DNA of 64,000 bases from Candidatus Latescibacterota bacterium (GCA_965203355.1 OZ241889.1:288001-352000), one strand, 5' to 3'. Shown: positions 2,760 to 54,418, numbered from the stretch's first letter. The notes: a model not told the origin generated them from the letters alone. Made by a program: numbers and translations.

Positions 2760-2789
2760 AATGGGACCCCAATGTTCTGGGGTCCCATT
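2760..2789 (-). terminator. 12-bp perfect stem-loop between two surface-protein genes (terminator or mRNA processing/stabilising hairpin)
   Basis: AATGGGACCCCA-atgttc-TGGGGTCCCATT, with only a weak U tail on the minus strand. Confidence 0.5.
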
Positions 2790-2820
2790 CCCTAGCTCGC
2801 TGTACGCTGTATCGCGGATG

Positions 2821-8888: not shown

Positions 8889-9250
8889 ACCGGCTGCGGC
8901 GGCAGAACCACCGACACCGTAAAAGGCACCGACCGACTCGCGCCGTTGGCGTCCGTAACCGTGTACACGACCTCCGACAGACCAACCGCCATCGGCATAC
9001 CCGAAATCGTCCGTATGTCCGCGTCAAAAGACAGCCCCTCCGGCAAACCCGAGACGCTATACGTCAACGGCGGGGTACCCCCATTGGCCACCGGCAACAC
9101 GAGGGCGGCGAGGGGATCACCCACCACCACCTCGCGCACCCGGCTATTTTCGCCGTCGCGCTCAGTCGCCAAGGCGGCGTGAGCACCGGGAAAGAGGAAA
9201 CTCGCCCCAAAAAGGGCCAGCAAGGTAACGATCGAAAACTTTTGCTTCAT
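8609..9250 (-). CDS. Small secreted protein: one putative-Ig domain plus FlgD-Ig/T9SS-like C-terminal domain
   Basis: Signal peptide AHA/A, LPEGLSFDADIRTISG, NYPNPFNPQTTI...KKMLLLK; RBS AAGGA. Confidence 0.9.
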   Translation of the reverse strand: MKQKFSIVTLLALFGASFLFPGAHAALATERDGENSRVREVVVGDPLAALVLPVANGGTPPLTYSVSGLPEGLSFDADIRTISGMPMAVGLSEVVYTVTDANGASRSVPFTVSVVLPPQPVVFSLADNYPNPFNPQTTIQYALPQAADVMLTVYNVVGQPVRTLVAEHQAAGRYAVEWDATNDSGHSVSSGMYFYRLQAGGDFLDIKKMLLLK

Positions 9251-34703: not shown

Positions 34704-34716
34704 GTGAGCGGCCTAA

Positions 34717-34745
34717 AATATACTGAACATACGTGTAGCTGTCAA
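34717..34745 (-). promoter_or_regulatory. sigma70-type promoter for the NTase-uvrA operon
   Basis: TTGACA-17 bp-TATATT. Confidence 0.7.
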
Positions 34746-34834
34746 GCTACCGCAAAGCCCAACTGCGTGGCAGATTCCGGGGCGTCCGTGAGCCGCTTAG
34801 AAGCTGTTTTCTGAGCCGCCCGCTGACAAAATTG

Positions 34835-34862
34835 TTGACAACGAAAATCGCCGCTATATTTT
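34835..34862 (+). promoter_or_regulatory. sigma70-type promoter upstream of the candidate structured RNA
   Basis: TTGACA-16 bp-TATTTT. Confidence 0.55.
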
Positions 34863-34864
34863 AT

Positions 34865-35040
34865 CCGTGCCTTCATCAAACAGAGTGCCCGCACTACGTC
34901 GGGTTATCTGTTGAATAAAACAGCCTTGTATTCGGCACAGGGTAGCTCCCTGAAGCCCGGCGAATAGGCAGAACTTCTCAATTACTCTGTGAGATGGAGG
35001 CATGGCCCGGCACCTTGCTGGGTCGTTGGCCCTTTATACT
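34865..35040 (+). ncRNA. Candidate structured RNA or leader (fold-back; family unassigned)
   Basis: 34865-34886 pairs with 34984-35005 (22 positions, two G.U pairs and a 2x2 loop). Internal hairpins, a promoter directly upstream, and no ORF. Confidence 0.45.
34988..35020. repeat. 33-bp inverted repeat, left copy (partner at 39673..39705)
   Basis: TGTGAGATGGAGGCATGGCCCGGCACCTTGCTG; 31/33 identical to the reverse complement of the right copy. Confidence 0.85.
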
Positions 35041-35563
35041 TAGCAGAGGAGCGGCGAGCAAGTTCTGATTCAACGAATTATCCCCAACATCCCAACGTAA
35101 CTAAGTGTCTTTTCTTGAGCGTTTTTGGGTCTACCTGAAAACGTATATGGAGTTCTCTGATCATCGTATTTTTGGGACTCTGACGATCAGGTGTACGGAC
35201 TTCCAATTGTATCACGGCAGATCAACCTATTGAAAGGGAGGGAAATATTTGCCATGAACAAAATTCTTGTAGTCGTTTGCTTTGTTATAACGCTGTTCTC
35301 GGCGCGAGGTGTCGAAGCCCAGAGCGTCGAGAAGAAGAACTGGGAGATACACATTAAGCTCGGTTCTCAAAGCTACTTAAACGAGCTAAATCCTGACCCC
35401 GGGAGTGCCGCACTAGGTGGCGTCCTCATTGGATATAATCTATCCGATCGATCCATGGTCGGACTACATTCCGCCTCCGCTAGCTACCAGATCCAATATC
35501 TAGACGGAACCACTGACGAAGAATACGTCAACTCCTTTTTACTTCTTTACCGCTATCGCTTTA

Positions 35564-36490
35564 GAAGCGTTTTTAAAATTCATTTTTTTTAGCGATTCGC
35601 TTGAGTATCAAATGGATCATCGCGATTTGGATAAAGGCTTCACTATTGCAAGTTAGGTGCTCGTAGTCTTTGGCATGGACTCGATAGTTGAGTAGCCAAG
35701 CAAACGTTCGTTCGACGACCCAACGACGAGGGAGCACCTCAAAGCCGGAGCCTTGTTTGGATACGACTTCAAGGTCTATTTTGTGCGTTTTTTTTTGAGC
35801 CACCCATTGCCTAAGCGGCGCGCCTTTATAGGCTCCATCCACCCACAGCTTGCGTAACCTTTGTACCGTGGGTGAAAAGTAGGTTTTCAACAAGGTCTTC
35901 AAGCCGTCGGCATCCGAGGTCGAAGCGGCGGTCACCACACATTCAATCAGACGACCCTCGGTGTCGACCAACAGATGGCGTTTGCGTCCTTTAACCTTCT
36001 TGCCGGCATCGTATCCAACACTTTTACCTTGGGTGGCCGTGGTAACGCTCTGCGCGTCCACGATCCCCGCCGACGGGGTCGGTGCCCGGCCGTGCTGGAT
36101 GCGATCCTGCTTGGTTAGGGCGTCGAGTATCTGTGGCCAAACCCCTTGTTGACGCCAGCGATTGAAGTAGCCATACACCGTTTGCCAAGGCCCAAAACAC
36201 CGCGGCAGCATCGGCCAAGGACACCCGGTTTTAGCCCGATACAGCAGCCCATTCATCACCAAACGCACCGCCCGAGGTGGCCGACCCGGACCCCCTTGAC
36301 GCCAACGGCCCCGAGGCAGCAGACGAGCAAGTAACAGCCATTGTGCATCGGTCAAATCCGTCGCATATTCTACACCGGGCGTACCCATATATAACCCCCC
36401 TTTCAGGCTTTGTGATGAAACCTAAAGGTCGGTTCATGGGTACGTCCTTTCAAGGGAAAATCAACTAAAAGTGAATTTTAAAAAGGCTTC
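35564..36490 (-). mobile_element. IS5-family insertion sequence (IS1031-like), 927 bp
   Basis: Terminal inverted repeats GAAGC(G/C)TTTTTAAAATTCA; 3-bp TTA target duplication at 35561-35563 and 36491-36493. Confidence 0.95.
35573..36388 (-). CDS. IS5-family DDE transposase
   Basis: YATDLTDAQW, TGCPW..LP..FGPWQTVY, IVDAQS, VDTEG, VDGAY, RWVVERTFAWL. Confidence 0.95.
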   Translation of the reverse strand: MGTPGVEYATDLTDAQWLLLARLLPRGRWRQGGPGRPPRAVRLVMNGLLYRAKTGCPWPMLPRCFGPWQTVYGYFNRWRQQGVWPQILDALTKQDRIQHGRAPTPSAGIVDAQSVTTATQGKSVGYDAGKKVKGRKRHLLVDTEGRLIECVVTAASTSDADGLKTLLKTYFSPTVQRLRKLWVDGAYKGAPLRQWVAQKKTHKIDLEVVSKQGSGFEVLPRRWVVERTFAWLLNYRVHAKDYEHLTCNSEAFIQIAMIHLILKRIAKKNEF

Positions 36491-36840
36491 TTAGAGTTCA
36501 AAAAGCACTCAAGCCCTATCTTGAAGCTGGCCTCGGATCAGCTGATCCCATCATCGGCTATGACACAGGCTCCAAGCCCGCTGTTACCTTCGCTCTCGGT
36601 GCGCTATGGCACTTCCATGACAAATGGGCCGTCTCCCTTGAAAGCCGAGGCGTCTCTTGGTCTCAAGACAACACCACTGATGTTGCCGAAGTATTCGGGG
36701 CAGTCGGAGAGTCTATTACCGTAAGTTCCAATGAGTTCACTTTGGGAATTGGATATCTCTTCTAGAACTGTCTAATAACAGCTTCTAGACGCTGGAATGC
36801 TATACTCATTAAGGGTGTATTTATTTGGTTTTCAATAGCA

Positions 36841-37254
36841 ATGAGGTGCAACATGATTTACCTAGTCCTTCTCATATCACTTACTCTGTTAGCGGCCTGC
36901 GACACGGTGAAGCAGCTAGCAGGACAAGTAGTTGTGTCAGTCGAAAATGCAACTGAAATAGACGACTTTGAGATTTATGCACACGGCAAAAGGAGATTCA
37001 GTCTTGATGCAGGAGAGAAGAAATCCTTCTCAGTCAGTGGATCAGGTACAAGTCCTATAAGGATAATTGTAAGACATCAAAGGCTATTCTCCGATGTAGT
37101 CTTTGAGCTTGGAAAATCCGAAGATGGAGATGGTGTAGGGGGCAGTGCAAATTTAGTGATCGCTACCGAAATCAGGTTGGGACAAGAGGTAGTAATCGTA
37201 ACTTGTACGAACTGTAACCGATCTAGTGCAAAGTCTAACCCAATAAGCCATTAA
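36841..37254 (+). CDS. Hypothetical lipoprotein
   Basis: Lipobox LAAC; AT-rich; start may be 36853. Confidence 0.65.
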   Translation: MRCNMIYLVLLISLTLLAACDTVKQLAGQVVVSVENATEIDDFEIYAHGKRRFSLDAGEKKSFSVSGSGTSPIRIIVRHQRLFSDVVFELGKSEDGDGVGGSANLVIATEIRLGQEVVIVTCTNCNRSSAKSNPISH

Positions 37255-37295
37255 CACCTAATAAGTGAAGCGTTTCTTTTTGTAAGGAGTGTAAA

Positions 37296-38303
37296 ATGAA
37301 AAGAATACTATGCCCTATCATCCTCGCAGCTATATTCGCGTGTAGTAGCGAGGATCCAATGTCGGCTCCTATCGCCTCCAAGCTGACTCAGGCCCCCGAG
37401 GACGAGCCCATCGAGTGTGACCTTACCGAGATAGACAGCTTGCGGCAAAACTATGACGAGCAGATCGATGAATTGGAAAGGATCATCGAAGCTTTTGAAA
37501 TCAAAGAGCCAATAAGAGGTCTTGCGGGCACATGGATAGCTACGTCCACGTCAGAGAACAGGAACGCGGTATCCTCCATCATTAATCTCATTCTCGTAGT
37601 GAGATGGCAAAAGAGCAATATCTACGAACGCGAAATTTGGGCGGTGCTGGATGGAAAGACTGTACTCCACGCATTCGGCGAACTACATATCACCAATAGG
37701 GAGGAAAATATCTCTGTTTTCTACGAGAGCTATCAGTATGGGGGGTGGACGAGAGACACGTATGGCGAGCGGCAGTCTCTACCTTATTTATATAGCGAAT
37801 GGAATTACGATACACTCGTTTTTTCTGAAGATTACCTTGAACTGAAGTGGGAAAGGGCTCAATACCAGCGAGTAACCAGTGGCCAAAAGCCGACCCAAGT
37901 CGCTATCGATCCTGTGGGCACCGAGCCGGTACTAGGTCTTGCGGGCACATGGATAGCCACGTCAGAGGACCCCACAGGCAACACTATTGCATTAGCATAC
38001 AAAGAGAACAACATATATGAATACGAAATTTGGTCGGTGGAGGACGGAAAGACTGTCGGCTTACTGTATGGCGAATGGCACATTCTTCGCGAGCAGTCAA
38101 CCAATACTTGGAGCTTCTACAACTACCAACATGGAGGGTCGGTGATGGACACGTACGGCGAGTGGCAGACCGTTCCACGAACTGATTTCGCGAGTCTTGC
38201 CTCCACATTAGTTCTTTCCAACGACCACCTTGATTTAGGGACATCTCAATACCGGCGTGATATGGCTGGAGATCTTCCGACGAACGACGCCGACGGGGCT
38301 TGA
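37296..38303 (+). CDS. Hypothetical lipoprotein with two tandem beta-rich (lipocalin-like) domains
   Basis: RBS AAGGAG, lipobox IFAC, duplicated GLAGTWIATS...NIYExEIW..DGKTV...DTYGE. Confidence 0.8.
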   Translation: MKRILCPIILAAIFACSSEDPMSAPIASKLTQAPEDEPIECDLTEIDSLRQNYDEQIDELERIIEAFEIKEPIRGLAGTWIATSTSENRNAVSSIINLILVVRWQKSNIYEREIWAVLDGKTVLHAFGELHITNREENISVFYESYQYGGWTRDTYGERQSLPYLYSEWNYDTLVFSEDYLELKWERAQYQRVTSGQKPTQVAIDPVGTEPVLGLAGTWIATSEDPTGNTIALAYKENNIYEYEIWSVEDGKTVGLLYGEWHILREQSTNTWSFYNYQHGGSVMDTYGEWQTVPRTDFASLASTLVLSNDHLDLGTSQYRRDMAGDLPTNDADGA

Positions 38304-38402
38304 CCGAAGACGGAAAGGACGATAGCTTGTCTTCGGTTAGGGACCACACCCAACAACATCAACGACTTACTTAACAACACCCAGACAAAGAAGGAGGCGA
38401 CC

Positions 38403-39422
38403 ATGTCGCGAGCTTATGTTGTGAGAACAACGGAATACTCCGGGGAGCCGATTCCCGGCGTTTTTGAGGAACTGCAAGCTGGCCGAGCGAGGATAGGCTG
38501 GTCCTATAGAGATGATCTCGACTTGCGCAAGATTCAGGAAAAGCTCAAACAGGGAAGTCCACTGAATGGAGACGAACAAGCAGCCCAGCGATGCTTGGGA
38601 TTCCTCACTAAACCGGCTTTGGACGACTATCTCCTCTATCCTCATCAGCCAACTAGACGGAAGTTCTGTGTCGTTCAGGTCAAGGGCGAATACGACTATT
38701 CGGCTGCGGAAGACAGCCTCAATGGAGATTTCAGGTCATTCAGACCCTGCTCTCTTATGACATCGAAGCCGGTTGATATGTACGACGAGATCGTACCCTC
38801 TCAACTCCGGCGGAGTCTCGGAATTCAAGGACGCTTTTATGGTATTAGTGATACTAGCCCGTTATCCATCTTTTTAGAGGATCTACCTGAAGCAGGACGC
38901 ACCCAAGGTGATTCAAACCGGACGAGTTTGCTGAGAATCAACAAAGAGCTTCGAGAGAAACTCCCTGACGCGCTCCGCAGGGAATTCAGTAGAGACGATC
39001 TATCTAGGAAATTCTGTCCAGACCTCTTCGATCGAATGGGCTATTCTTATGTTTTGCAGGAAGGCCCTTCCGAATGCGGCTCCGATCTCGTCGTATCTAT
39101 AGGTTCTCCCTTCTTGCTAGATTCGGTTGATATTCGAATTGGCGTACAGGTTTTTGCCTACGAAGGAACCGTTGAAGAATCGGCTCTTCAATGCAAACTG
39201 GACCAGTTACTTAAAGGTTGGGAAACTAACTGTCTTGACTACGGAGTTTTACTCACAACGGGACTATGTAGCGATGAGGCCAAGGAAGCACTAGACAGGC
39301 ACAATAAGAATGATAAGAATGAGCCGAATCGGCTTGTGAACCTAATTGACGGTAACGACCTCGCTGATCTTTTTCTTAAGTACTTCCTACCGGCAGCGGA
39401 TGAGTATCCAAAGGCGAGATAG
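38403..39422 (+). CDS. Mrr-like restriction endonuclease domain protein
   Basis: RBS AGGAGG; N-terminal ARIGW domain; C-terminal LFDRMGY..GSDLVV..GVQV..GVLLTTG..LIDGNDL typical of the Mrr catalytic domain. Confidence 0.75.
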   Translation: MSRAYVVRTTEYSGEPIPGVFEELQAGRARIGWSYRDDLDLRKIQEKLKQGSPLNGDEQAAQRCLGFLTKPALDDYLLYPHQPTRRKFCVVQVKGEYDYSAAEDSLNGDFRSFRPCSLMTSKPVDMYDEIVPSQLRRSLGIQGRFYGISDTSPLSIFLEDLPEAGRTQGDSNRTSLLRINKELREKLPDALRREFSRDDLSRKFCPDLFDRMGYSYVLQEGPSECGSDLVVSIGSPFLLDSVDIRIGVQVFAYEGTVEESALQCKLDQLLKGWETNCLDYGVLLTTGLCSDEAKEALDRHNKNDKNEPNRLVNLIDGNDLADLFLKYFLPAADEYPKAR

Positions 39423-39672
39423 ATAGTGATGTGACGGGAATATCATATCCGAAAATGTATTAAGCCTTTGTCAATGTCGCCTATCTGACGATTATACTCA
39501 GAGGGTTACGAAACCGCTTCTACTCAATTACCGCCCAACACCCAATAGCTCCTATCCCGGTCTGGTAGTCTTGGCCGCAAACCGTCCTTGGCAGAGCTGA
39601 TTCCCTCAAAAAAAATTTCTACCTGCGACGCGATCTGTCGCACCTCTCAGGTAAATTTCCTTTTATCACAAT

Positions 39673-39705
39673 CAGCAGGGTGCCGAGCCATGCCTCCATC
39701 TCACA
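39673..39705. repeat. 33-bp inverted repeat, right copy
   Basis: CAGCAGGGTGCCGAGCCATGCCTCCATCTCACA. Confidence 0.85.
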
Positions 39706-39745
39706 AATTCCAACGCGCCCTGCCGAGGATTATCTATCGCGTACC

Positions 39746-39858
39746 GCTTCCGGCTCGGCGGCACTAGCCCCTATCGCGCTGCCGCCGGGCACTTATGCCG
39801 TCCCAGACTAGCTCAAGCCCTGCCTTCCAAGCTCTCGTTGATGCCATCCGCGTGGTAT
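39746..39858 (+). pseudogene. Decayed duplicate of the leader and 5' end of the methionine-synthase-like gene (40764-40941)
   Basis: Aligns by eye in two blocks, with an internal deletion and small indels. Confidence 0.75.
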
Positions 39859-39900
39859 CTTCCGGCGGCATCTGCTGACGTCGTAATAAAGCGGATGAAC

Positions 39901-40290
39901 TTACCGCGTCTTTACATGCGCGTACTGTAGTATTTTTTGATCAACCGTGAGCAGTTCACAGTCGTACTCGCGGGCGGTTGCAACGATGATTTGATCGGCC
40001 GGATCGCGGTGAAATTCACCCGGCAATTTGGTCGCAGTAATGGCAATCCTTGGAGTGAGTTCAATATATTGAATACCGGGTAAGGCCAGTGCTGTGTCCA
40101 TCCATTCCTCAATAGGGCAGGCCAATTTCAGTCTTTTGTATTCCACCAACTTGGCGATCTCCCAGCAAGAAATTGCCGATACCCCAAGACCGGTCGGCCG
40201 CTCTTGCTCAATTACATTCCTATAGTACTCGGTTAGTCGCTCGTTTTCATCGGCCAGCCAGACCCACAGGTGAGTATCCAGAATAATCAC
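39901..40290 (-). CDS. vapC: PIN-domain (VapC family) toxin
   Basis: IILDTHLWVW, SAISCWEI, HRDPADQIIVATA, LLTVD. Confidence 0.92.
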   Translation of the reverse strand: MIILDTHLWVWLADENERLTEYYRNVIEQERPTGLGVSAISCWEIAKLVEYKRLKLACPIEEWMDTALALPGIQYIELTPRIAITATKLPGEFHRDPADQIIVATAREYDCELLTVDQKILQYAHVKTR

Positions 40291-40505
40291 TTTAATAGTT
40301 CCCAGTCATCTTCAGCGACAGGCTCCGTCGGCTCCACATATTCAATGACTTTGCCGCGCAGCGGCGAAGGTGTCACAGAGTGGAGGCCGGTTCCATACGA
40401 CAATATAATTACTTCTACCTTGTCTCCTTCTTTAAAAGGAAGAGCACTCAGCTTTAGTTCTCCGTTTGCGGCGATCTGTTTCTCGACGCGATAGGCTTTC
40501 ATCAC
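40287..40505 (-). CDS. Putative antitoxin of the adjacent PIN toxin
   Basis: 72 aa, overlaps the toxin start by 4 bp; LPFKEGDKVEVII..LRGKVIEY..P.EPVAEDDW. Confidence 0.8.
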   Translation of the reverse strand: MMKAYRVEKQIAANGELKLSALPFKEGDKVEVIILSYGTGLHSVTPSPLRGKVIEYVEPTEPVAEDDWELLK

Positions 40506-40694
40506 TCAGCTAACTCCTCTCGGATCACTTTACGCAAGGTTTCCTCTAAGACAATCCTGAACTTGGATATATTGACGCAATGCCTCGTTGATCAAGGTCT
40601 GGTAATCGTCAAAGACTCCGACAGCATCGGCAAAGTCGATTCCATGTTTTTGCAGATTGAATCGAGCTTTGGCGGCGTCCCACTGATAATCCAT
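40502..40694 (-). pseudogene. Collapsed BrnT/BrnA toxin-antitoxin remnant
   Basis: MDYQWDAAKARFNLQKHGIDFADAVGVFDD (BrnT N-terminus) joined to YQTLINEALRQYI, with a frameshifted LEETLRKVIREELAE tail (BrnA C-terminus). Confidence 0.8.
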
Positions 40695-40829
40695 CTTTTA
40701 ATTTATGCACAAATGATGCACAATCAAAGAGTTCACCCTTCAGCTTTTGGGTATAAGACTCCGGCTTCCGCGCTCGGCGGCTCTAGCCTCTGTTGCGCTG
40801 CCGCCACCGAACACTTATCGTAGCCAGCC

Positions 40830-45197: not shown

Positions 45198-47018
45198 ATG
45201 ACCGCTAAAATCCTCGTTGTCCTCCTCCTCTTCGCCTTACCCATTCAAGCCAAAACTCAGATCGAAGCAGCCTATGAAGTCGGCGAACTCGACTTGGAGA
45301 CGGCCCTGATCTACCAAGTCCTCAGCGTGCGCTCACCCAATCAACTGCCGGCGATCTACCGAGAGTCCAGCGGGCCAGCGGTTTGCGGGACCCCGCATCT
45401 AGTCCAAGCCATGAGCGCCGCTCCCGACCTGAGTGCCGAGTTCCAAGCGCGCTTGGGCAAGCTGGCGCAGCGTCGGCCAGACGCCCAACATGACATCCTC
45501 TCGCCATCGGGGCGCTTTCGCGTCCACTACGATACCGAAGGACGCCACGCGGTTTCGCCTACGGACGACGACGCCAACGGCATCCCGGACTACATCGACC
45601 GCACCATGGCCGTGCTCGACAGCGTTTGGGTACTCGAAATCGATCAATTAGGCTACAATCCGCCGCCTTCGGACAACGGCTTGGGCGGAGGCGACGAATA
45701 CGACGCGTATGTTATCGAGCTAAACGGCGGATATTATGGATACGCCTATCCTGCGAGTAACAGTACCGAAACCACGCACAGCTACCTCGAAATCGACAAC
45801 AACTTTACCGATCCGGGCTACAAGCAAACTCGCGGGTTAGACGCCCTGCGCGTAGCTATTGCCCACGAGTTCCACCACGCCATCCAGTTTGGCTACTACG
45901 CAAAATTCGACGGCAGTTGGTGGCAGGAGTCCACCTCGACGTGGATGGAAGAAGTGGCCTATCCGCCCATCGACGATTACCTCCAGTACTTGACCTACTT
46001 CCTCGGCGAACCCCAACGCGCCCTCAACTCCGGCGTTTATCGCAGTCTCCACACCTACGGCTCGGCGATTTTTTCGCTCTTCCTCGATCAGCGCTACGGC
46101 CCCGATCTCAAATCCCTGATCCGGGCGGAGCTGAAACAGCACTCACCAGATGTCATCGCGCTACGGGCGCGGGCGCATCTCAACCGCTTGATCTGGGAAG
46201 AAATCAAGGCGCGCAAAAGCGTCCATCTCGATCACTTCGACCGCGTCATCCGCCAAGTCGAGCCGGGCGGGCTCGGCGTTGCTATGAGCGAGTTTGCCGT
46301 GTGGAACTATTTCACCGGCAATCGCCACCGAGGCTCATACTATGCCGAAGCAGACAAATACCCGACCGTCCCCACCCGCGACCTCGCCATCAACGCCGAA
46401 GCGGTCGTCCGCGACACCAGCCTCGTCGATGCCACCGGCAGCGTCTATCTGCGCCTTCAGCCGCAACTGCGCACGGGCGGAGTCGATCTCTTCTTCGACG
46501 CCAATCAAGGAGCGTGGCGGCGGCACTTGCTCTTAATCGGCCCGGACCGCGTTTCCGTGCAACTCGTCTCCGAGCCGACCATCCGCGTCACGAGTTGGGA
46601 CCAGTTCGACGAAATCGTCCTCGTCGCCACTGCCGCCGAGCGCACGGGTCTCGCCCATCAGCACTTCTTCACCGCGCAGTTCGATCCTAGTCTAATCGAG
46701 TCCGACCGGCCCGCCGCCCTCGCCACCCGGCTCAAACCCAACTATCCCAATCCCTTCCGCCCCCCTTACCATTCACACACCCGGCTGGCGTTTGACTTAG
46801 CCGTCCCCAGCCGAGAAACGCGCCTTGCACTGTTTACGGCCAACGGTACGCTCGTATGGGAGCAAGACTTAGGCGAGCGGGCGGCACGCCCAGACCACGC
46901 CGTGCGATGGGATGGCCGCAACCTCGCTGGCAACCTCGTAGCCAGCGGCATCTATCACCTGCTTCTCGAAGCCGACGGCATCGCCGCTAAACGATCACTC
47001 GCGGTGGTGCGCGATTGA
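45198..47018 (+). CDS. Secreted zinc metalloprotease (MXAN_6640-like) with FlgD-Ig C-terminal domain, copy 1
   Basis: Signal peptide, CGT, FRVHY, AHEFHHAIQFGY, WWQESTSTWME, NYPNPF. Confidence 0.85.
   Translation: MTAKILVVLLLFALPIQAKTQIEAAYEVGELDLETALIYQVLSVRSPNQLPAIYRESSGPAVCGTPHLVQAMSAAPDLSAEFQARLGKLAQRRPDAQHDILSPSGRFRVHYDTEGRHAVSPTDDDANGIPDYIDRTMAVLDSVWVLEIDQLGYNPPPSDNGLGGGDEYDAYVIELNGGYYGYAYPASNSTETTHSYLEIDNNFTDPGYKQTRGLDALRVAIAHEFHHAIQFGYYAKFDGSWWQESTSTWMEEVAYPPIDDYLQYLTYFLGEPQRALNSGVYRSLHTYGSAIFSLFLDQRYGPDLKSLIRAELKQHSPDVIALRARAHLNRLIWEEIKARKSVHLDHFDRVIRQVEPGGLGVAMSEFAVWNYFTGNRHRGSYYAEADKYPTVPTRDLAINAEAVVRDTSLVDATGSVYLRLQPQLRTGGVDLFFDANQGAWRRHLLLIGPDRVSVQLVSEPTIRVTSWDQFDEIVLVATAAERTGLAHQHFFTAQFDPSLIESDRPAALATRLKPNYPNPFRPPYHSHTRLAFDLAVPSRETRLALFTANGTLVWEQDLGERAARPDHAVRWDGRNLAGNLVASGIYHLLLEADGIAAKRSLAVVRD
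46179..47018. repeat. 840-bp near-identical direct repeat, copy 1 (copy 2 at 50712..51551)
   Basis: Constant offset of 4533 bp at both ends; only scattered substitutions. Confidence 0.95.
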
Positions 47019-47067
47019 AAAACGCAAACGGCGTGGGTAGCACTCACCTAAAAGTACGTAATGATGC

Positions 47068-47116
47068 AAAAAAATAGCCGGATTCTCCTATAATTACCTC
47101 TAGGAAAATCCGGCTA
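47068..47116 (-). terminator. Intrinsic terminator of the minus-strand peptide operon
   Basis: TAGCCGGATT(T/C)TCCTA stem followed by T7 on the minus strand. Confidence 0.7.
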
Positions 47117-47174
47117 AATTGCCTCGCCGGTAAGATCGCAGCCAGTGGCGTTTATCGTCTCTTACAGGAAGCCA

Positions 47175-47205
47175 ACGGCTAGCAGGCGTTGCGCTTGCTA
47201 GCCGT
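47175..47205. other. 14-bp stem-loop just 3' of the cysteine-rich peptide gene
   Basis: ACGGCTAGCAGGCG-ttg-CGCTTGCTAGCCGT. Confidence 0.6.
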
Positions 47206-47232
47206 CTTACGAGACTAGGGACCCATAGATCG

Positions 47233-47553
47233 CTAGCAGGCCCCTCCGTTCCAACAACGATTGCACTCGTCGTATACTTGATACCCCCCCGTCCCGTCCG
47301 GACAGAACATTCGGATATACTTAGCCCTATATCCGGGGGCTATGTCGCAACATGTGGATAGGACTTGGGAACTGCATCCCCCCCAAGCAGGTTTGCATGC
47401 CCACGCTTCTTTGGGCGTGAGGAACAAAACCCCTGCGGTGAGCAGAAGCACAAAACCCACGACGGGCAACCTGAGCGACTTTTGAGCAGAACCGCTCTCG
47501 TCGTGCAAAAAGTTCTGCGCCTTGACCAAGGCCATCTTGATCATCGTTTTCAT
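47233..47553 (-). CDS. Precursor with Flp-prepilin-like leader, signal peptide and 8-Cys core
   Basis: RBS AAGGAG; NFLHDESG, hydrophobic helix, AWA, then C-x6-C-x7-CC-x14-C-x12-C-x2-C-x5-C. Confidence 0.8.
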   Translation of the reverse strand: MKTMIKMALVKAQNFLHDESGSAQKSLRLPVVGFVLLLTAGVLFLTPKEAWACKPAWGGCSSQVLSTCCDIAPGYRAKYIRMFCPDGTGGYQVYDECNRCWNGGAC

Positions 47554-47660
47554 CCCTACTTCTCCTTGTTAGATATTATGAGAGACTACTTTTGACCTAC
47601 TCGCGGGCGATTCTCTATCCTCCTTTCTGGCCCTACGGACACGAGTATCGTCGTGGCTAT

Positions 47661-48224
47661 CTATAGAGATAACCCGAACGAGATTATAATACTCCCCTTC
47701 ATAAAAACCGTACAGATGCTAGATGCTACAATTATGGGACCAAAGGGAATTGTTCCCGTAAGTTTCTTGCTATTCTTAGAGGAATCGGAGATACCAAGTC
47801 TCTTAAAAATCCAACCCAATCCCAAGACTATCAGGTATATGCAGATCGCATTGAGTAAGAACACAGCAGGGGCCGTCCATATAGGGACCGCCTTTAGATG
47901 TGTAAATAAAGTTGGCGGTAAGGATATAGATGCCGAGACAAATAATTTAGCGTCGCCAGGCCCCCAAAAATTCAGTATATATAAAAGCACACCTATAACC
48001 ATGGCCACACCCAATATAGTAGAAAACAACTTATACCCTATCGCATTTTCATAGATAAGAATAAGGTTGCCTAACAAACCGGTAAGAAAAATTATAAAAT
48101 TATACCTGTTCGGGACTAAACGACTCTTCAAATCAACATATCCTGCATAGATGCCAATAGTTAGAAGAACGGCAAGCATGATAAATTCGGTAACAAATGT
48201 GGTATCGTACACTTTGAACCCCAA
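47661..48224 (-). CDS. Prepilin peptidase, A24 family (CpaA/TadV-like, no methyltransferase domain)
   Basis: YVDLKSRLVPN and WGPGDAKL catalytic aspartates, C-terminal IPFGP, multiple transmembrane helices. Confidence 0.88.
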   Translation of the reverse strand: MGFKVYDTTFVTEFIMLAVLLTIGIYAGYVDLKSRLVPNRYNFIIFLTGLLGNLILIYENAIGYKLFSTILGVAMVIGVLLYILNFWGPGDAKLFVSASISLPPTLFTHLKAVPIWTAPAVFLLNAICIYLIVLGLGWIFKRLGISDSSKNSKKLTGTIPFGPIIVASSICTVFMKGSIIISFGLSL

Positions 48225-48228
48225 GTGG

Positions 48229-48768
48229 CTAATTCAAACTGTCCAAGATATTCTCTATACAACTACTGCCTCGCTCAACTTCCACTATTACTCCTTCACT
48301 GTTCACTAATATAGCGGTAGGAAAAGTATCAATTGAGTACATTTGAGTCACACCGAAATCTCTATCCCAGCCTATCGCTTCCCTTATTCCATATTGGTCA
48401 ACTTTTTCCTTAATAATCTGCTTATTGCCAGAAATGACTACAAGAATAGGCATAGAGACCGCCTGAAGATCGACATACATGCTGTCACAAGCAGAGCACC
48501 CTGCACTACTAAACACGAGCATATTGGGGAGGCGATCATTTGCGGAACCGAATTCAATTCGATTCCCGTCAATTGTCTCTATCTCGAAAGGCTGCACCTT
48601 AGTGTTCTTCAATGACTCGGCCAGCGAATTCGTCAATCTGACGGCGTTACTGTTTCTCGTCATGTGCAAGTCGGCCATTAAAAGGAACGCCAAGAGCAGT
48701 CCATTAATAATAGATATTGGTTTAATAAGCGAATTCAGTTTCATTGTAACTTCAAGGCGGTCATTCAT
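48229..48768 (-). CDS. Membrane-anchored thioredoxin-fold protein (TlpA/ResA/MauD-like)
   Basis: N-terminal TM helix, PFEIETIDG, LVFSSAGCSAC, cis-Pro motif TFPTAILVNSEGVI. Confidence 0.85.
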   Translation of the reverse strand: MNDRLEVTMKLNSLIKPISIINGLLLAFLLMADLHMTRNSNAVRLTNSLAESLKNTKVQPFEIETIDGNRIEFGSANDRLPNMLVFSSAGCSACDSMYVDLQAVSMPILVVISGNKQIIKEKVDQYGIREAIGWDRDFGVTQMYSIDTFPTAILVNSEGVIVEVERGSSCIENILDSLN

Positions 48769-49342
48769 TAGTGTGAGAATTCGTCCAGTTGTATAGCAAG
48801 TCCAATCCTCTAACTAGAGCCTCTACGGACTTTGTCGCCCCCGTAACTCCGTCAACTTGTAATAGAGTATTACTGTTGTCGGATTCCAATAGTCCAAATT
48901 GAGATAGAATCGGCTGAGGGTCGAACGGCTCTCCCTGAAGTTCCCAAGGCTCAAGAGGAACAATGTCTTGTATTTCCCTTGTCAGACAATTAAAAACGAC
49001 CGCGACTAGCAAATCCCTACAGACATCACAAGCTATATCCTCCCTTAAAATAGCTGCGTACATATCGCCATATTCTAAGACTTCTATTATTCCAGAAGCC
49101 GGAACTCGATTGGGGAAAAAAATTGATCTCAACGTTGGGACATCCTGACCAAGGGTTTCATTCAACTTTACCAATAATTCTTGTGGAGGGGGATGCCAAG
49201 GGAGCGAAGGATTATAGCTCGACCTCTGCTCTTCAAATGCTATTAAGCGACTGCTTGCAGACCATGCCATTAGCGTCAAGAGCAAACAAACAATAGCTAG
49301 CACAATAAAAATGGGGTCTAATAAGTCAGCTTTACGAAACAT
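48761..49342 (-). CDS. Membrane-anchored CxxC protein with a C-terminal FMN-attachment motif
   Basis: N-terminal TM helix, CDVC, VDGVTGATKS. Confidence 0.72.
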   Translation of the reverse strand: MFRKADLLDPIFIVLAIVCLLLTLMAWSASSRLIAFEEQRSSYNPSLPWHPPPQELLVKLNETLGQDVPTLRSIFFPNRVPASGIIEVLEYGDMYAAILREDIACDVCRDLLVAVVFNCLTREIQDIVPLEPWELQGEPFDPQPILSQFGLLESDNSNTLLQVDGVTGATKSVEALVRGLDLLYNWTNSHTNE

Positions 49343-49679
49343 AATTGGTACCAGTCAAGGCAGTATTCCATTCGGCTAGAACCGAGCGATCTACTTGGCG
49401 ATGATCTTCTATCAAATGAACGGTCGGCGAGAAGCGATATACCGCAGAGTAAGCATCGTGGTCGTATGCGCGTACCATTAAGCCAACCAGTCCGAGCACA
49501 ACGCTGATCGGGTAGGCGATCAACGACTTCCGCTCATCGGTAGTGCCTACGAGCCCAGTACAGAATGTACTGACCAGAATTGCTATCTCATTGGGGGCTA
49601 AAAAGGAAGAGTTCGGCAATAGCCATAATGCGTTTGTCATCAACGGCTCGTTTGACCAAGAGGCGGTATCGAAACTCAA
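49332..49679 (-). CDS. Hypothetical membrane protein, possibly truncated
   Basis: Hydrophobic segments; stop overlaps the next start by 11 bp; start uncertain. Confidence 0.4.
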   Translation of the reverse strand: MSFDTASWSNEPLMTNALWLLPNSSFLAPNEIAILVSTFCTGLVGTTDERKSLIAYPISVVLGLVGLMVRAYDHDAYSAVYRFSPTVHLIEDHRQVDRSVLAEWNTALTGTNYVS

Positions 49680-49689
49680 AGATGACGTA

Positions 49690-49720
49690 AGTCTAATAAA
49701 AAAAAAAACTTAGCTGTCAA
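49690..49720 (-). promoter_or_regulatory. Candidate promoter of the peptide operon with T11 in the spacer
   Basis: TTGACA-gctaag-T11-at-TAGACT. Confidence 0.55.
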
Positions 49721-49904
49721 GTACTTTTTGCAACTTTTTGCAAAAAAAATGCGGACGGGAGGACCAGTCCCTTCGCCCGCGTTGGGTTTAACCGTTGTTT
49801 TCGGCAGTTCATTATCCTATAATTCTGCTGTACGGAGATTTGTGGCTGTTAGAATTCTGGCGCGACAACTCCCAATTTTTTTGATGACCTAGGAGAATTA
49901 TTCT

Positions 49905-51551
49905 ATGATCTTGACGCTAGCTATCGGAATACTGCTATCTACGGCACACGACAATCATGCAGAAACACCGCCGCAGCACACCTCGACCGCACTGCGCTGC
50001 GGCACCCCCTACGTGCTCCAAGCCATGGACGCGAGCACCGAACACCCGCGTCTAAAACTCGTGCAGCACCCCCGGCCTGGCACTCAGCACAGCCTGATAA
50101 CGCCCTCCGGTCTTTTCCGCGTCCACTACGACACCGAGGGACGCAATGCGGTTGATTCGGACGACGACGATGGCAACGGCGTCCCGGATTACATCGACCT
50201 AGCCGCTACCGTTCTCGATAGCATTTGGGTGTTGGAAGTCGAGCAACTCGGCTACAATCCGCCCCCTTCGGACAATGGCTTGGGCGGAGGAGACGAATAC
50301 GACGTTTATGTTGTCGAATTAGGAATCGGCAATAGGACTTTTTATGGGTTCGCCTATCCTGGAACACCCAGCGCGATCACCTACAGCCATCTCAAAATCG
50401 ACAACAACTTTACCGACCCAAGCTACAAGCAGACCCGCGGGCTGGACGCCCTGCGCGTGACCATCGCCCACGAGTTCCACCACGCCATCCAGTTTGGCTA
50501 CTACGCAAAATTCGACGGCAGTTGGTGGCAGGAGTCCACCTCGACGTGGATGGAGGAAGTGGCCTATCCACACATCGACGATTACCTCCAGTATTTGACC
50601 CACTTCCTCGGCGAACCTCAACGCGCCCTCAACTCCGGGCCTTGTGGTAGCAACCACACCTACGGGAGTGCGATCTTTTCTTTGTTCCTCGATCAGCACT
50701 ACGGCCGCGAGCTCAACCGCTTGATCTGGGAAGAAATCAAGGCACGCAAAAGCGTCCATCTCGACCACTTCGACCGCGTCATCCGCCAAGTCGAGCCGGG
50801 CGGGCTCGGCGTTGCTATGAGCGAGTTTGCCGTGTGGAACTATTTCACCGGCATTCGCCACCGAGACCAATACTATGCCGAAGCAGACAAATACCCGACC
50901 GTCCCCACCCGCGACATCGCCATCGACGCCGAAGCAGTCGCCCGCGACACCAGCCTCGTCGATGCCACCGGCAGCGTCTATCTGCGCCTTCAGCCGCAAC
51001 TGCGCCCGGGCGGAGTCGATCTCTTCTTCGACGCCAACCAAGGAGCGTGGCGGCGGCACTTGCTCTTAATCGGCCCGGACCGCGTTTCCGTGCAACTCGT
51101 CTCCGAGCCGACCATCCGCGTCACGAGTTGGGACCAGTTCGACGAAATCGTCCTCGTCGCCACTGCCGCCGAGCGCACGGGTCTCGCGCACCAGCACTTC
51201 TTCACCGCGCAGTTCGATCCTAGTCTGATCGAGTCCGACCGGCCCGCCGCCCTCGCCACCCGGCTCAAACCCAACTACCCCAATCCCTTCCGCCCCCCTT
51301 ACCATTCACACACCCGGCTGGCGTTTGACTTAGCCGTCCCCAGCCGAGAAACGCGCCTTGCGCTGTTTACGGCCAACGGCACGCTCGTATGGGAGCAAGA
51401 CTTAGGCGAGCGGGCGGCACGCCCAGACCACGCCGTGCGATGGGATGGCCGCAACCTCGCTGGCAACCTCGTAGCCAGCGGCATCTATCACCTGCTTCTC
51501 GAAGCCGACGGCATCGCCGCTAAACGATCACTTGCGGTGCTGCGCGATTGA
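49905..51551 (+). CDS. Secreted zinc metalloprotease (MXAN_6640-like) with FlgD-Ig C-terminal domain, copy 2
   Basis: RBS AGGAG; RCGTP, AHEFHHAIQFGY; C-terminal half nearly identical to copy 1. Confidence 0.85.
   Translation: MILTLAIGILLSTAHDNHAETPPQHTSTALRCGTPYVLQAMDASTEHPRLKLVQHPRPGTQHSLITPSGLFRVHYDTEGRNAVDSDDDDGNGVPDYIDLAATVLDSIWVLEVEQLGYNPPPSDNGLGGGDEYDVYVVELGIGNRTFYGFAYPGTPSAITYSHLKIDNNFTDPSYKQTRGLDALRVTIAHEFHHAIQFGYYAKFDGSWWQESTSTWMEEVAYPHIDDYLQYLTHFLGEPQRALNSGPCGSNHTYGSAIFSLFLDQHYGRELNRLIWEEIKARKSVHLDHFDRVIRQVEPGGLGVAMSEFAVWNYFTGIRHRDQYYAEADKYPTVPTRDIAIDAEAVARDTSLVDATGSVYLRLQPQLRPGGVDLFFDANQGAWRRHLLLIGPDRVSVQLVSEPTIRVTSWDQFDEIVLVATAAERTGLAHQHFFTAQFDPSLIESDRPAALATRLKPNYPNPFRPPYHSHTRLAFDLAVPSRETRLALFTANGTLVWEQDLGERAARPDHAVRWDGRNLAGNLVASGIYHLLLEADGIAAKRSLAVLRD
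50712..51551. repeat. 840-bp direct repeat, copy 2
   Basis: Matches 46179..47018. Confidence 0.95.
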
Positions 51552-51635: not shown

Positions 51636-51687
51636 TTGACAGTTGCGCTGCGATGACGTATGGTAACGACCCAAATCATACGTCATC
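51636..51687 (+). promoter_or_regulatory. TA promoter with overlapping palindromic operator
   Basis: TTGACA-17 bp-TATGGT; GATGACGTATG-N14-CATACGTCATC perfect inverted repeat. Confidence 0.75.
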
Positions 51688-51701
51688 TGTGGAGACAACT
51701 G

Positions 51702-52046
51702 ATGCAAACCAAGCTCACGCTGCGCTTAGAGGCGCAATTAATCGAACGCGCTAAGGCCCATGCCAAAAAGCAGGGCAAGTCCGTATCGCAGATGGTGGCT
51801 GACTATTTTGCGTTGCTGGATCGAGACGATCTGCTAGAGACGCTACCACCGATCACTCGCTCTTTATACGGTGTCTTGAAAGGCTCTGCGGTTGATGAGG
51901 ATACATACCGCGAACATCTCAATGTCCAGCTACAGGGCCGTCCTACTCACCGCACCAAGGAAGTCCAACTGGGACGTTGCCTGATCGATAGCATGGACGA
52001 TGTTTCTCAGGCACTGTCCATAGCTGAGGAAGAAGACGCTCGGTGA
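51702..52046 (+). CDS. Ribbon-helix-helix antitoxin (DUF6364-like) with an extra C-terminal tail
   Basis: MQTKLTLRLE..IERAKAHAKKQGKSVSQMVADYF..LPPITRSL.G; RBS GGAG. Confidence 0.8.
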   Translation: MQTKLTLRLEAQLIERAKAHAKKQGKSVSQMVADYFALLDRDDLLETLPPITRSLYGVLKGSAVDEDTYREHLNVQLQGRPTHRTKEVQLGRCLIDSMDDVSQALSIAEEEDAR

Positions 52047-52483
52047 GGCTGGTCGATGCTAACCTCTTGGTATATGCCCACGTCGCCGACTTTGACCAAC
52101 ACCGGGCTGCACACGCTTGGCTCGACGACAAGCTAAACGAAACAATTCCACTCGGCCTGCCGTGGTCCAGCCTGTTGGCCTTCGCTCGTTTAGTATCTAA
52201 TCCCCGCATTTTTGAACGCCCGGAACCCATAGCAACAGCTTGGCAACAGGTTGAGTTCTGGCTCGACGCTCCCGCAAGCTGGATACCGCTGGCCACGGAT
52301 CGCCATCGGCAAGTCCTGGCCCCGTTGCTTAAAACCCCAAACCTGCGTGCCGATCACATACCTGACGCTCATCTCGCTGCACTCGCCATTGAGCACGACT
52401 TACTCCTTTGTTCTACCGACACTGATTTCGCCCGCTTCCCCAAGTTGAGTTGGGAAAATCCCCTCGTCAACGTAGAGTTCTAA
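52043..52483 (+). CDS. vapC: PIN-domain (VapC family) toxin
   Basis: LVDANLLVYA, PDAHLAALAIEH, STDTDFARF. Confidence 0.92.
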   Translation: MRLVDANLLVYAHVADFDQHRAAHAWLDDKLNETIPLGLPWSSLLAFARLVSNPRIFERPEPIATAWQQVEFWLDAPASWIPLATDRHRQVLAPLLKTPNLRADHIPDAHLAALAIEHDLLLCSTDTDFARFPKLSWENPLVNVEF

Positions 52484-52486
52484 GTC

Positions 52487-54418
52487 TTGTCAGCGCCTCC
52501 GCGCCGCGTCTCTCTCCGCGCCATTGCCATCGGGGCCATCGGCTGCCTCGTCATCGCCGTGGGCGAGCCTTTTGGCGTCTTGGTGATGCACAGCTCGCCC
52601 ATGGCCGCCGATTACTCAACCGGCGCGGCCCTGTTCTTGTTTTTTCTCGTCACCTTGCTCGTCAATCCGCTCGCCAAATTGCTCACCGGCACCAGCCTGC
52701 ACACCGGCGAGTTGGCCACCGTGTACATCATGATGATCGTGGGGGCCGCCATTCCCTCTTGGGGCCTGACCATGAACCTGATCCCGCTGCTCGGCGGGTT
52801 CTTTTATTACGCCACCCCGGAAAACGACTGGGTCAACACCATCCAGCCCTATATCTCGCGGCTTCTCGTGCCGCAAGACAGCGCGGCCATCCAAAAGCTG
52901 TTTGAAGGCAAAGCCCAAGGCGAACGCATCCCTTGGGGAGCTTGGGCGACGCCGCTGATGGCGTGGAGCCTGTTTGTCGTCAACATGTACTTCACCACGC
53001 TGTGCGTACTCGTCGTACTCCGCAAGCAATGGGTCGAGCGCGAGCGGCTCAACTTCCCGCTGGCCACCTTGCCCATAGCCATGAGCACCCGCGCCAACGA
53101 CCAAGCCATCGCGCCTTTTTACCGCAATTACCTGACTTGGATCGGCTTTGCCATTCCCGCGCTCATCGGCTCTATCAACGCCTTACACCGCTATTTCAAC
53201 TTCATCCCAGGGATTGACCTCAACCTGTGGGTGCCTTTTTTGCGCCACTCCATTTGGGTCAACTTTCGCCCGCACTTCGAGGTGGTTGGCCTCTCCTACT
53301 TGCTCAACCTCGACATCTCTATGGGCGTGTGGGTCTTTGCCTTGCTCAACATGTTGGCCATCGGCTTGTGCCGCATGACCGGGTGGAACATCGGCCCGGA
53401 GCAACCCTATTCTTCGCCCTCCCCACCCAGCATCGCCCACATCGCCCTCGGTGCGTTGTTCTTCTTAGTGCTGTCCAGTTTGTGGAGCGGGCGGCAGCAT
53501 TTGCGCCAAGTCTGGCGCAAGGCTCTGCGCGGCGACGACGCCATCGACGACAGCGGGGAATTGCTTCCGTACCGGGTCGCGGTCTTTGGCTTTATAGCCA
53601 GCTTTCTGCTCGGCCTGTTCGCGCTCTACGCCACCAACATGAACTTGCCGACCGCCTTTGTCTTTCAGCTTTCGGCTCTCGTGATCTTCGTCGGCTTGGC
53701 CCGCATCATCTCGCAGGCCGGGTTGGCCTATTGCCGCGCTCCGGTGGCTCCGGCCGTGTTCACTGTCAACACGCTCGGGTCGTCGTCGGTGGGTGCCCCG
53801 GGCCTGACGGCACTGGCACTCAACTTCCCGTGGTCGGCCGACATCCGCACCTTCGTCATGGCCTCAGCCGCCACCGGCCTCAAGCTGGCGGAAGTAACGC
53901 GCCTAGAGTACCGGCGCGTGTTCTGGGCCATTGCCGCGGCCATCGTCGTCACCCTCGCCGGCTCCATCGCCGCGGTCATCTACCTCGCGTACACCTATGG
54001 GGGCATCAACCTGAGCAGTTGGCAATTCGGCTATATGACGACCTATACCGGCAATTGGATCACCAACAACCTCAACAACATGCAGCCCACCTACGGCTGG
54101 CACTTGTCCTTTGCCGGCCTCGGCGCGTTCTTGATGGGCCTGTTGACCTTCATCAAAAACCGCTTCGTCGGCTTTCCCATTCATCCCATCGGCTTGGCCA
54201 TCGGGCTGCCGCATCCGGTGCAGCTAATCTGGCCGTCGGTCTTTCTCGCTTGGCTGCTCAAGGCGCTCATTCTCAAGTACGGCGGCCCCCGGCTTTACAC
54301 GCGCTTGCGTCCGTTCTTTTTGGGGCTGGTGCTGGGCGCGTTTGGCACCGCTGGATTGTGGCTCATCATCGACTCCTTCACCGGCCTGACCGGCAACCGG
54401 CTGATCAACATCGGGTGA
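52487..54418 (+). CDS. Polytopic membrane protein (DUF6785/DUF6784-like, possible transporter)
   Basis: ELATVY, PWGAW..PL..W, RKQWVERERLNFPL, FPIHPIG, LILKYGG..LY. Confidence 0.75.
   Translation: MSAPPRRVSLRAIAIGAIGCLVIAVGEPFGVLVMHSSPMAADYSTGAALFLFFLVTLLVNPLAKLLTGTSLHTGELATVYIMMIVGAAIPSWGLTMNLIPLLGGFFYYATPENDWVNTIQPYISRLLVPQDSAAIQKLFEGKAQGERIPWGAWATPLMAWSLFVVNMYFTTLCVLVVLRKQWVERERLNFPLATLPIAMSTRANDQAIAPFYRNYLTWIGFAIPALIGSINALHRYFNFIPGIDLNLWVPFLRHSIWVNFRPHFEVVGLSYLLNLDISMGVWVFALLNMLAIGLCRMTGWNIGPEQPYSSPSPPSIAHIALGALFFLVLSSLWSGRQHLRQVWRKALRGDDAIDDSGELLPYRVAVFGFIASFLLGLFALYATNMNLPTAFVFQLSALVIFVGLARIISQAGLAYCRAPVAPAVFTVNTLGSSSVGAPGLTALALNFPWSADIRTFVMASAATGLKLAEVTRLEYRRVFWAIAAAIVVTLAGSIAAVIYLAYTYGGINLSSWQFGYMTTYTGNWITNNLNNMQPTYGWHLSFAGLGAFLMGLLTFIKNRFVGFPIHPIGLAIGLPHPVQLIWPSVFLAWLLKALILKYGGPRLYTRLRPFFLGLVLGAFGTAGLWLIIDSFTGLTGNRLINIG

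Follow-up and report, generated by a model that had tools for sequence, protein, structure and literature searches.

A compact gene cassette in Candidatus Latescibacterota that may couple a Flp-type leader and its prepilin peptidase to a hypervariable four-disulfide peptide

To our knowledge, prepilin peptidases of the A24 family have hardly been described in any role other than serving type IV filament systems. Why, then, is such an enzyme encoded beside a small cysteine-rich protein and two proteins with redox motifs in the DNA of a marine, sponge-associated Candidatus Latescibacterota bacterium? The genes concerned form a small, foreign-looking set on the minus strand, referred to here as the island, within a stretch of 64,000 nucleotides (nt) that was analysed as a whole and is called the window (GCA_965203355.1, OZ241889.1:288001-352000). 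A previous interpretation, the sequence-only reading, had proposed that pilin-processing machinery was repurposed at this locus to mature a secreted disulfide-rich miniprotein with the help of a dedicated redox relay. The five minus-strand open reading frames (ORFs) on which it relied were recovered in the same order and with the same motifs, including the precursor of 106 amino acids (aa) with 8 Cys that ends the series. They occupy positions 47233-49679, are arranged head to tail and are tightly packed or overlapping: stop-to-start overlaps join the 115-aa to the 193-aa ORF and the 193-aa to the 179-aa ORF, and gaps of 16 nt and 107 nt separate the thioredoxin-like from the peptidase ORF and the peptidase from the precursor ORF, respectively. 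The island is best explained as a self-contained and horizontally acquired cassette that would make one exported, disulfide-rich and fast-diversifying small protein. The precursor of this protein, again as the best explanation of its motifs, would derive from a Flp-type prepilin that kept the TadV-recognised F-L-x-D-E-x-G/S-A sequence and lost the determinants of pilin assembly.

The precursor gene (47233..47553, minus strand) is preceded by AAGGAG 8-9 nt 5' of its ATG. Eleven homologues of its product were found, 64-83% identical and all from ENA or Logan assemblies, and the resulting alignment of 12 sequences (66 pairs for pairwise identities) was used to delimit its parts. The leader carries the motif F15-L16-x-D-E19-x-G21-S22-A23, in which E19, G21, S22 and A23 are invariant in 12/12 sequences. 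Using hhalign, the leader segment QNFLHDESGSAQ was placed on LQFLRDEQGATA of a Pfam-verified Flp (63 bits), Gly on Gly, with an expectation value (E) of 0.0018 for this single comparison; the match is a short one, of residues 13-24 with residues 6-17 over 12 columns, and has a probability of 15%. The aligned segment of the Flp, which is from Ralstonia, reads L-Q-F-L-R-D-E-Q-G-A-T-A, its Gly being the one that precedes the Flp motif, and the Flp gene adjoins a 183-aa TadV-like gene on a Ralstonia megaplasmid. The DExG leader that had been noted on the small Cys-rich ORF can thus be described as Flp-like and aligned on the processing Gly.

Conservation is distributed very unevenly along the precursor. 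Mean pairwise identity is 72.6% in the leader (residues 1-21), 93.5% in the basic and hydrophobic segment that follows (22-52) and 50.9% in the core (53 to the end; 43% when Cys are left out), the last value comparing with 84-89% for the peptidase and the protein here called FMN-like (for flavin mononucleotide, FMN) and with 89-95%, relative to the window copy, for the thioredoxin. Within this variable core, the Cys frame C-x5-10-C-x7-CC-x14-18-C-x12-C-x2-3-C-x5-C is identical in 12/12 sequences. The AlphaFold model computed from the 12-row alignment has a predicted local distance difference test score (pLDDT) of 87-91 for core residues 61-100, with a three-stranded sheet. With this model no match was returned by Foldseek at E <= 0.001, and a wide VIA structure search gave a best Z of 3.4, with the disulfide bacteriocin laterosporulin3 at Z 2.4; no fold was assigned on this basis, and no usable match to the precursor was found in the ESM Atlas. 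A conserved leader, a variable core and adjacent maturation genes make up an organisation like that of peptides that are made by ribosomes and modified after translation (RiPPs) or bacteriocins. The precursor was not filed under any RiPP class because no modifying enzyme is present beyond proteolysis and the presumed disulfides.

The gene next to that of the precursor (47661..48212, minus strand) encodes the presumed leader peptidase. The Pfam family Peptidase_A24 (PF01478) matched it with 37.9 bits against a cut-off of 26.5, over model positions 2-102 of 104, and all 6 of its homologues carry the same domain. These homologues place the start at the GTG at 48212, giving a protein of 183 aa, where the ORF listing gives a TTG at 48224. 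The protein has about five hydrophobic segments and is devoid of the N-terminal domain of PilD-type enzymes; its catalytic D27 and G84-P-G-D87 are invariant in 7/7 sequences. A BLASTP comparison with the Ralstonia TadV-like protein aligned both Asp motifs (D24 and G-A-G-D), at 32% identity over 75 aa and an E of 9e-5 for the pair. With the Pfam cut-off passed and both catalytic Asp motifs kept, the A24 assignment made earlier was borne out, and the protein is, judged by these motifs, a short TadV/CpaA-type A24 aspartic peptidase. A predicted complex of the peptidase with residues 1-56 of the precursor scored 0.01, which gives no verdict and was counted neither way. Like the Flp prepilin/TadV (CpaA, FppA) pairs of Tad (type IVc) pili, the island combines a short A24 peptidase that has both Asp motifs with F-L-x-D-E-x-G followed by a small residue and, as in the Ralstonia Flp/TadV-like reference locus, the peptidase gene adjoins that of its presumed substrate.

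These likenesses raise the main rival explanation, namely that the precursor is an unusual Flp/type IV pilin or pseudopilin whose head is rich in disulfides. Its own TadV-type peptidase would process it, a Tad or type IV pilus machine encoded elsewhere in the genome would polymerise it or use it as a minor or tip subunit, and the redox pair would only fold the head. The Flp-like leader aligned on the processing Gly and the short TadV-type peptidase both speak for it, and it explains well the conservation of residues 22-52. A conserved N-terminal segment followed by a hypervariable, disulfide-bonded C-terminal part is the classic type IV pilin pattern, and we counted it in favour of this rival. 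Several features of the sequence nevertheless weaken it. Flp pilins are defined, in excerpts of two articles (PMC3244431, PMC10934763), by GXXXXEY and a hydrophobic mature N-terminus. In the precursor, Gly21 is followed by S-A-Q-K-S-L-R-L-P, then by 15 hydrophobic residues and the invariant T-P-[KQ]-[EA]-A-W-A/C; the Glu (+5) and Tyr (+6) of GXXXXEY and the hydrophobic stretch from +1 are missing. Position +5 is Ser26 (12/12) and position +6 is Leu27 (11/12, with Phe in the twelfth sequence), whilst Lys25 (+4) and Arg28 (+7) are invariant and would keep the N-terminus on the cytoplasmic side. Pfam Flp_Fap (PF04964) gave no match to the precursor at E <= 1, and no Flp was retrieved when the precursor profile was compared with 1.84 billion representatives. 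The island also differs from the Flp/TadV pairs of Tad pili by what it adds, that is a signal-peptidase-I-type site (the invariant A-x-A/C that follows the hydrophobic stretch), a 54-aa domain with 8 Cys and two redox genes. Finally, as the sequence-only reading had stated, no Tad/Flp assembly family was found by Pfam among the 40 window ORFs scanned (outside the island, those of about 128 aa or more), assembly ATPase, platform and secretin included, and the island is a free-standing indel. On balance, we consider a pilin unlikely.

The site at the end of the hydrophobic segment bears on a second alternative. Residues T46, P47, A50, W51, A52 and C53 are invariant in the precursor alignment. 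We take T46-P47-x-x-A50-W51-A52/C53 to be a Sec/signal peptidase I layout, with a basic n-region, an h-region, Pro at -6 and Ala at -3 and -1. A lipoprotein reading of A-W-A-C was rejected on motif grounds, as Trp at -2 and charged residues ahead of the Cys are out of keeping with a lipobox. The precursor could then be a plain Cys-rich protein that is exported by Sec and has an extended signal peptide, and the A24-like protein, rather than cutting after Gly21, would clear the released signal peptide in the membrane or act on another substrate. Residues 25-52 do resemble a complete n/h/c signal peptide, and the Gly lies 9 residues away from the hydrophobic core. Against such a protein stand the invariance of E19, G21, S22 and A23, the register of the leader with a true Flp leader and the presence of the precursor and peptidase genes together on at least 5 other contigs; it is a distinctly unlikely alternative.

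If the precursor matures into a disulfide-rich peptide, the two remaining proteins of the cassette would be candidates for making its disulfides. The first (48229..48768, minus strand; 179 aa) has an N-terminal hydrophobic segment, a CSAC motif at residues 91-94 and a cis-Pro region F149-P150-T151. It aligned with Bacillus subtilis ResA (2h1b) at an E of 3.4e-5, CSAC on CEPC and F-P-T on L-P-T, and C91, C94 and P150 are invariant in 8/8 sequences. Among NCBIfam models, ResA was matched at an E of 9e-9; all scores are below the equivalog cut-offs (ResA 35.4 versus 170, StoA 19.2 versus 210 and MauD 16.1 versus 188.6 bits), and those of Pfam Thioredoxin_2 (19.6 versus 27), AhpC-TSA (15.4 versus 26) and Redoxin (13.9 versus 26.6) are likewise below theirs. 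By these alignments the protein is a membrane-anchored thioredoxin-fold protein of the TlpA/ResA group and a member of no named equivalog. Its earlier designation as a TlpA/MauD-type thioredoxin is therefore retained for the fold, the CxxC and the cis-Pro, which are in register with ResA, and dropped as a family name, since the curated cut-offs were not reached. Dedicated periplasmic thioredoxins serve Cys-rich clients in known systems, such as ResA/CcmG for apocytochrome c and MauD for the small subunit of methylamine dehydrogenase. The island protein resembles them in its anchored TlpA/ResA-like fold, its CxxC and cis-Pro and the position of its gene beside that of a presumed client; unlike ResA and MauD, it scores far below the equivalog cut-offs, has a CSAC motif and would serve an unrelated client.

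The second protein (48761..49342, minus strand; 193 aa) has one N-terminal hydrophobic segment and two motifs, CDVC at residues 105-108 and DGVTGAT at residues 164-170 (D-G-[VI]-T-G-A-T in the family), both invariant in 8/8 sequences. Near its C-terminus, T167-G-A-T170 fits the flavinylation motif [S/T]GA[S/T], as defined in part of the text of PMC8238504, and would presumably face the outside of the cytosol. When the family was aligned by hhalign with a genuine FMN_bind protein of comparable size, this motif was in register, over 18 columns only (E 0.089), and the nearest language-model clusters of the protein are FMN_bind (0.85-0.87), which is a lead only. We regard it as a probable, though unproven, divergent FMN-binding domain. 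What had been called a flavinylation-motif protein thus keeps its invariant TGAT (8/8) and its N-terminal hydrophobic segment, whereas its score with the FMN_bind profile is below the cut-off.

Proteins of these kinds are encoded together in other bacteria, which suggests a third alternative. Excerpts of Meheust et al. (2021, eLife; PMC8238504) describe hybrid thioredoxin-like/flavinylation clusters with DsbD, ApbE, DUF3570, thioredoxin-like proteins and DUF4266, a small CXC protein. The island could be an extracytosolic electron-transfer module of this hybrid type, its small Cys-rich protein being a redox carrier or a substrate like DUF4266 and not a product with a bioactivity of its own. Like the clusters in those excerpts, the island joins an extracytosolic flavinylation-motif protein, a thioredoxin-like protein and a small secreted Cys protein, and its [S/T]GA[S/T] is invariant (8/8). 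Unlike them, it carries none of those Pfam families, ApbE and DsbD included, and has an A24 peptidase, a pilin-like leader and a hypervariable small protein. Conservation would be expected of a housekeeping carrier, but no part of the island varies more than the core; there is no match to ApbE, DsbD, DUF3570 or DUF4266; and the A24 peptidase and the Flp-like leader are left unexplained. An electron-transfer module is improbable.

Is the gene set a unit, and has it moved as one? Logan contigs of four runs were aligned to positions 46400-50400 at a likeness of at least 80%. In run X9, a 253-bp contig (depth 32.7, about 87% like the flanks) joins position 47033 to position 49904 with 36 unrelated letters between them and represents an empty site; the same run contains an island-bearing contig of 2,145 bp at depth 2. 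In X7, which is labelled a marine metagenome, positions 46941-50321 are covered by one contig of 3,764 bp, from a first metalloprotease gene through the island to a second, and therefore the island occupies the same site in that relative. In X5, a sponge metagenome, the island is covered by four contigs. The whole island (47034..49903) is thus a 2,870-bp indel in the spacer between two paralogous metalloprotease genes of the plus strand. The thioredoxin and FMN-like genes of X7 differ from those of the window at 54/1,123 positions (about 95% alike), the host flanks at 34/243 and 58/369 positions (about 84-86% alike). The stretch that encodes the core could not be aligned at 80% in X7, where 205 nt were skipped and 210 other letters stand in their place, and X5 shows the same gap. 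The island reads as a laterally acquired cassette, which may have been transferred or have recombined between relatives at a later time than the divergence of their genomes.

Co-occurrence of the genes was judged by contigs of equal size across the match tables. Precursor and peptidase genes were accompanied by the thioredoxin gene on contig 5337 and by the FMN-like gene on contig 3004, and were found as a pair on contigs 4762 and 1983; contig 3210 combines precursor, FMN-like and thioredoxin genes, contig 40827 peptidase and FMN-like genes, and contigs 3067, 2013 and 1325 FMN-like and thioredoxin genes. The contigs of X5, X7 and X9 cover all four genes, and on these the gene order was confirmed directly. 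Identity to the window copies in relatives is 89-95% for the thioredoxin, 87-89% for the FMN-like protein and 81-87% for the peptidase. The sequence-only reading would have been abandoned had the combination been confined to the window; it is conserved beyond it, within a narrow clade in which the accessory proteins are 81-95% identical.

The flanking genes (45198-47018 and 49905-51551, plus strand) are tandem paralogues encoding MXAN_6640-type HExxH metalloproteases of 606 and 548 aa with FlgD_ig C-terminal (type IX-like) domains. Their DNA is 83-96% identical over long stretches, with 88-96% in the 3' parts and N-terminal parts that differ, and in one relative the two genes are just 36 nt apart. 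A functional link between the island and these metalloproteases was rejected, as a relative has both paralogues without the island.

The composition of the island sets it apart from its surroundings. Its G+C content is 0.39-0.45 over 47500-49749, compared to 0.57-0.65 in the flanks, and the lowest value among the 64 bins of 1 kb in the window is that of 48001-49000 (0.415). At third codon positions (GC3), the three enzyme genes have 0.39-0.46 and the flanking host paralogues 0.73. No integrase, tRNA or terminal repeat was detected in the island at the settings used, and PADLOC, PHROGs and Rfam gave no matches.

An AT-richer operon with its own promoter and terminator had been proposed. The low G+C content and the terminator stood up to analysis: 3' of the precursor gene, a terminator-like element (47068..47114, minus strand) consists of a hairpin with a 16-bp stem and a 10-nt loop (47077-47114) followed by a U run (47068-47074), which is the dominant predicted 3' fold (z -4.4 in a 186-nt stretch). 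A simple terminator scan missed this hairpin, probably because its loop is of 10 nt. The promoter did not stand up equally. On the minus strand at 49715..49743, TTGACA (49720-49715) is preceded by a perfect tandem of TTGCAAAAAG (49743-49724; 0 chance matches in 100 shuffles), and the two together are a possible, putative promoter and operator. No acceptable -10 box follows TTGACA, the sigma-70 scan lists no minus-strand site there, and a sigma-54 pattern search gave no match near the island. In runs X4 and X5, a piece of about 50 nt comprising the T run and TTGACA (49675-49726) has a higher depth and is joined to other sequence; it may be a promoter-like element repeated elsewhere in these genomes. 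Just upstream of TTGACA and its tandem repeat, and still within the island, inspection of the minus strand by eye showed a hairpin rich in G+C and, after it, a T run (49744-49785), which could insulate the operon from read-through.

The ORF that comes first in the operon (49332..49679, minus strand; 115 aa, TTG start) had been described as a membrane ORF. It is present and has one clear hydrophobic segment (residues 53-71); its coding status is doubtful, as its 3' half is not conserved in relatives. In X7 this half is replaced, 189 nt by an unrelated 109 nt, and in two relatives the reading frame continues from the last conserved codons into the next gene. Its exact sequence is absent from the protein collection, and neither Pfam nor NCBIfam assigns it to a family.

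Combined, these results lead us to a reading that we put at about an even chance: a Flp-leader/TadV pair would have been taken over to mature an exported, hypervariable peptide with four disulfides, assisted by a private redox pair. The precursor would insert with its N-terminus inside and its C-terminus outside by means of the hydrophobic segment 30-45, and the A24 peptidase of the cassette would remove residues 1-21 at the cytoplasmic face. On the outer face, the anchored CSAC thioredoxin would fold the Cys-rich domain, exchanging electrons with the anchored CxxC/FMN-motif protein; the pair would act as a private relay, DsbA/DsbB-like or resembling a flavin-linked sulfhydryl oxidase, that forms or shuffles the four disulfides. 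Signal peptidase I would then cut at A-W-A/C and free the 54-aa peptide with its four disulfides; without this cut, the domain would stay tethered to the membrane. The peptide may have an extracellular target that favours diversification, for instance a competitor, a phage or the sponge host. The computable features all fit the repurposing and the redox relay that the sequence-only reading had put forward; cleavage, release, disulfide formation and flavinylation are what we infer from them.

A number of observations weigh against this reading. Firstly, the hydrophobic segment lies at about residues 30-45, and the putative A24 site is 9 residues N-terminal to it; in known A24 substrates, according to excerpts of PMC3244431, the cut site abuts the hydrophobic segment. 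The conservation of residues 22-52 is moreover unusual for a disposable signal peptide, and this segment could belong to the final product. Secondly, the redox pair is open to question on several counts. TlpA/ResA-type thioredoxins are usually reductants rather than oxidants. For the 193-aa protein, Pfam FMN_bind (PF04205) reached 14.6 bits against a cut-off of 22 and covered only model positions 52-72 of 77, the family profile gave no match in the PDB, and the AlphaFold model, with a pLDDT of 46, is unusable. The island is without a gene for an electron donor or acceptor, ApbE or an exporter, and neither ApbE, DsbD/CcdA nor export genes were found among the scanned ORFs of the window. Thirdly, the GC3 of the precursor gene is 0.65 (0.73 in the leader part), which is host-like and unlike that of the enzyme genes, so that the composition within the island is mosaic. 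Lastly, the homologues are close relatives only. Alignments of the precursor, peptidase, FMN-like and thioredoxin families against genome, JGI metagenome and viral contigs gave no relative, and the precursor profile retrieved, from the 1.84 billion representatives, its own cluster and one other protein only, P0027.

P0027, a 1,590-aa repeat protein in which an F-C-P-D-G-x-G-G-Y stretch was matched six times, was judged a chance match at the level of the motif and rejected as a relative. In a tblastn search of plasmids, the precursor had matches at chance level only (E >= 6) and the peptidase had no match, and a sequence search of the PDB with the profiles of both gave none.

How does the cassette relate to what is known of A24 enzymes? 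Archaeal class III signal peptidases have non-pilin substrates, for example the sugar-binding proteins of Sulfolobus that are cut by PibD. The island resembles this system in that the predicted substrate of an A24 enzyme is an exported protein other than a classical pilus subunit. Unlike the island precursor, the PibD substrates keep an N-terminus that is hydrophobic and probably assemble by means of a pilus-like machine, and they are not Cys-rich, hypervariable or linked to redox proteins. All parts of the island come from known superfamilies, and their combination appears undescribed. A full-text literature search found no paper in which A24 peptidases are linked to Cys-rich peptides, thioredoxins or FMN-binding proteins, in agreement with the earlier statement that such a set is not a described pathway.

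Other parts of the window were noted in passing. A second stretch of lower G+C content (33741-40800; 0.47-0.52) encodes a Pol-beta-type nucleotidyltransferase, an IS4/IS5-family DDE transposase (35573-36388), an Mrr-like restriction endonuclease (38403-39422) and ORFs without a Pfam family, and resembles a mobile or defence patch. The second metalloprotease gene is directly followed by those of a DUF6364 protein and a PIN-domain protein, with overlapping stop and start (51660-52483), which are likely a toxin-antitoxin pair; they are followed by a 643-aa polytopic membrane protein with strong Pfam matches to DUF6785 and DUF6784 (52487-54418). Large secreted proteins with He_PIG Ig domains and FlgD_ig/Por_Secre_tail C-terminal sorting domains are encoded at 1-8496, 8609-9250 and 26053-28590, and their domains point to the use of type IX-like secretion by the host.

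In a bolder form, which we hold only tentatively, the island would be one copy of a mobile four-part kit, in which a Flp-leader/TadV pair, taken out of pilus biogenesis, removes the leaders of hypervariable four-disulfide peptides exported by sponge-associated bacteria and a covalently flavinylated CxxC membrane protein replaces DsbB/VKOR. If the repurposing is true, an A24 peptidase would have been recruited together with its leader for an exported peptide that does not assemble, which would widen the known role of this protease family, and with the redox pair there would be a candidate flavin-linked pathway by which disulfides are made in the periplasm. Cysteine-bridged peptides and knottins are obtained from sponges, as recorded in excerpts of a review (PMC12426817). 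With a fixed frame of 8 Cys, fast-changing loops and relatives in one sponge and one marine metagenome run, cassettes of this kind would be a plausible source of stable bioactive miniproteins.

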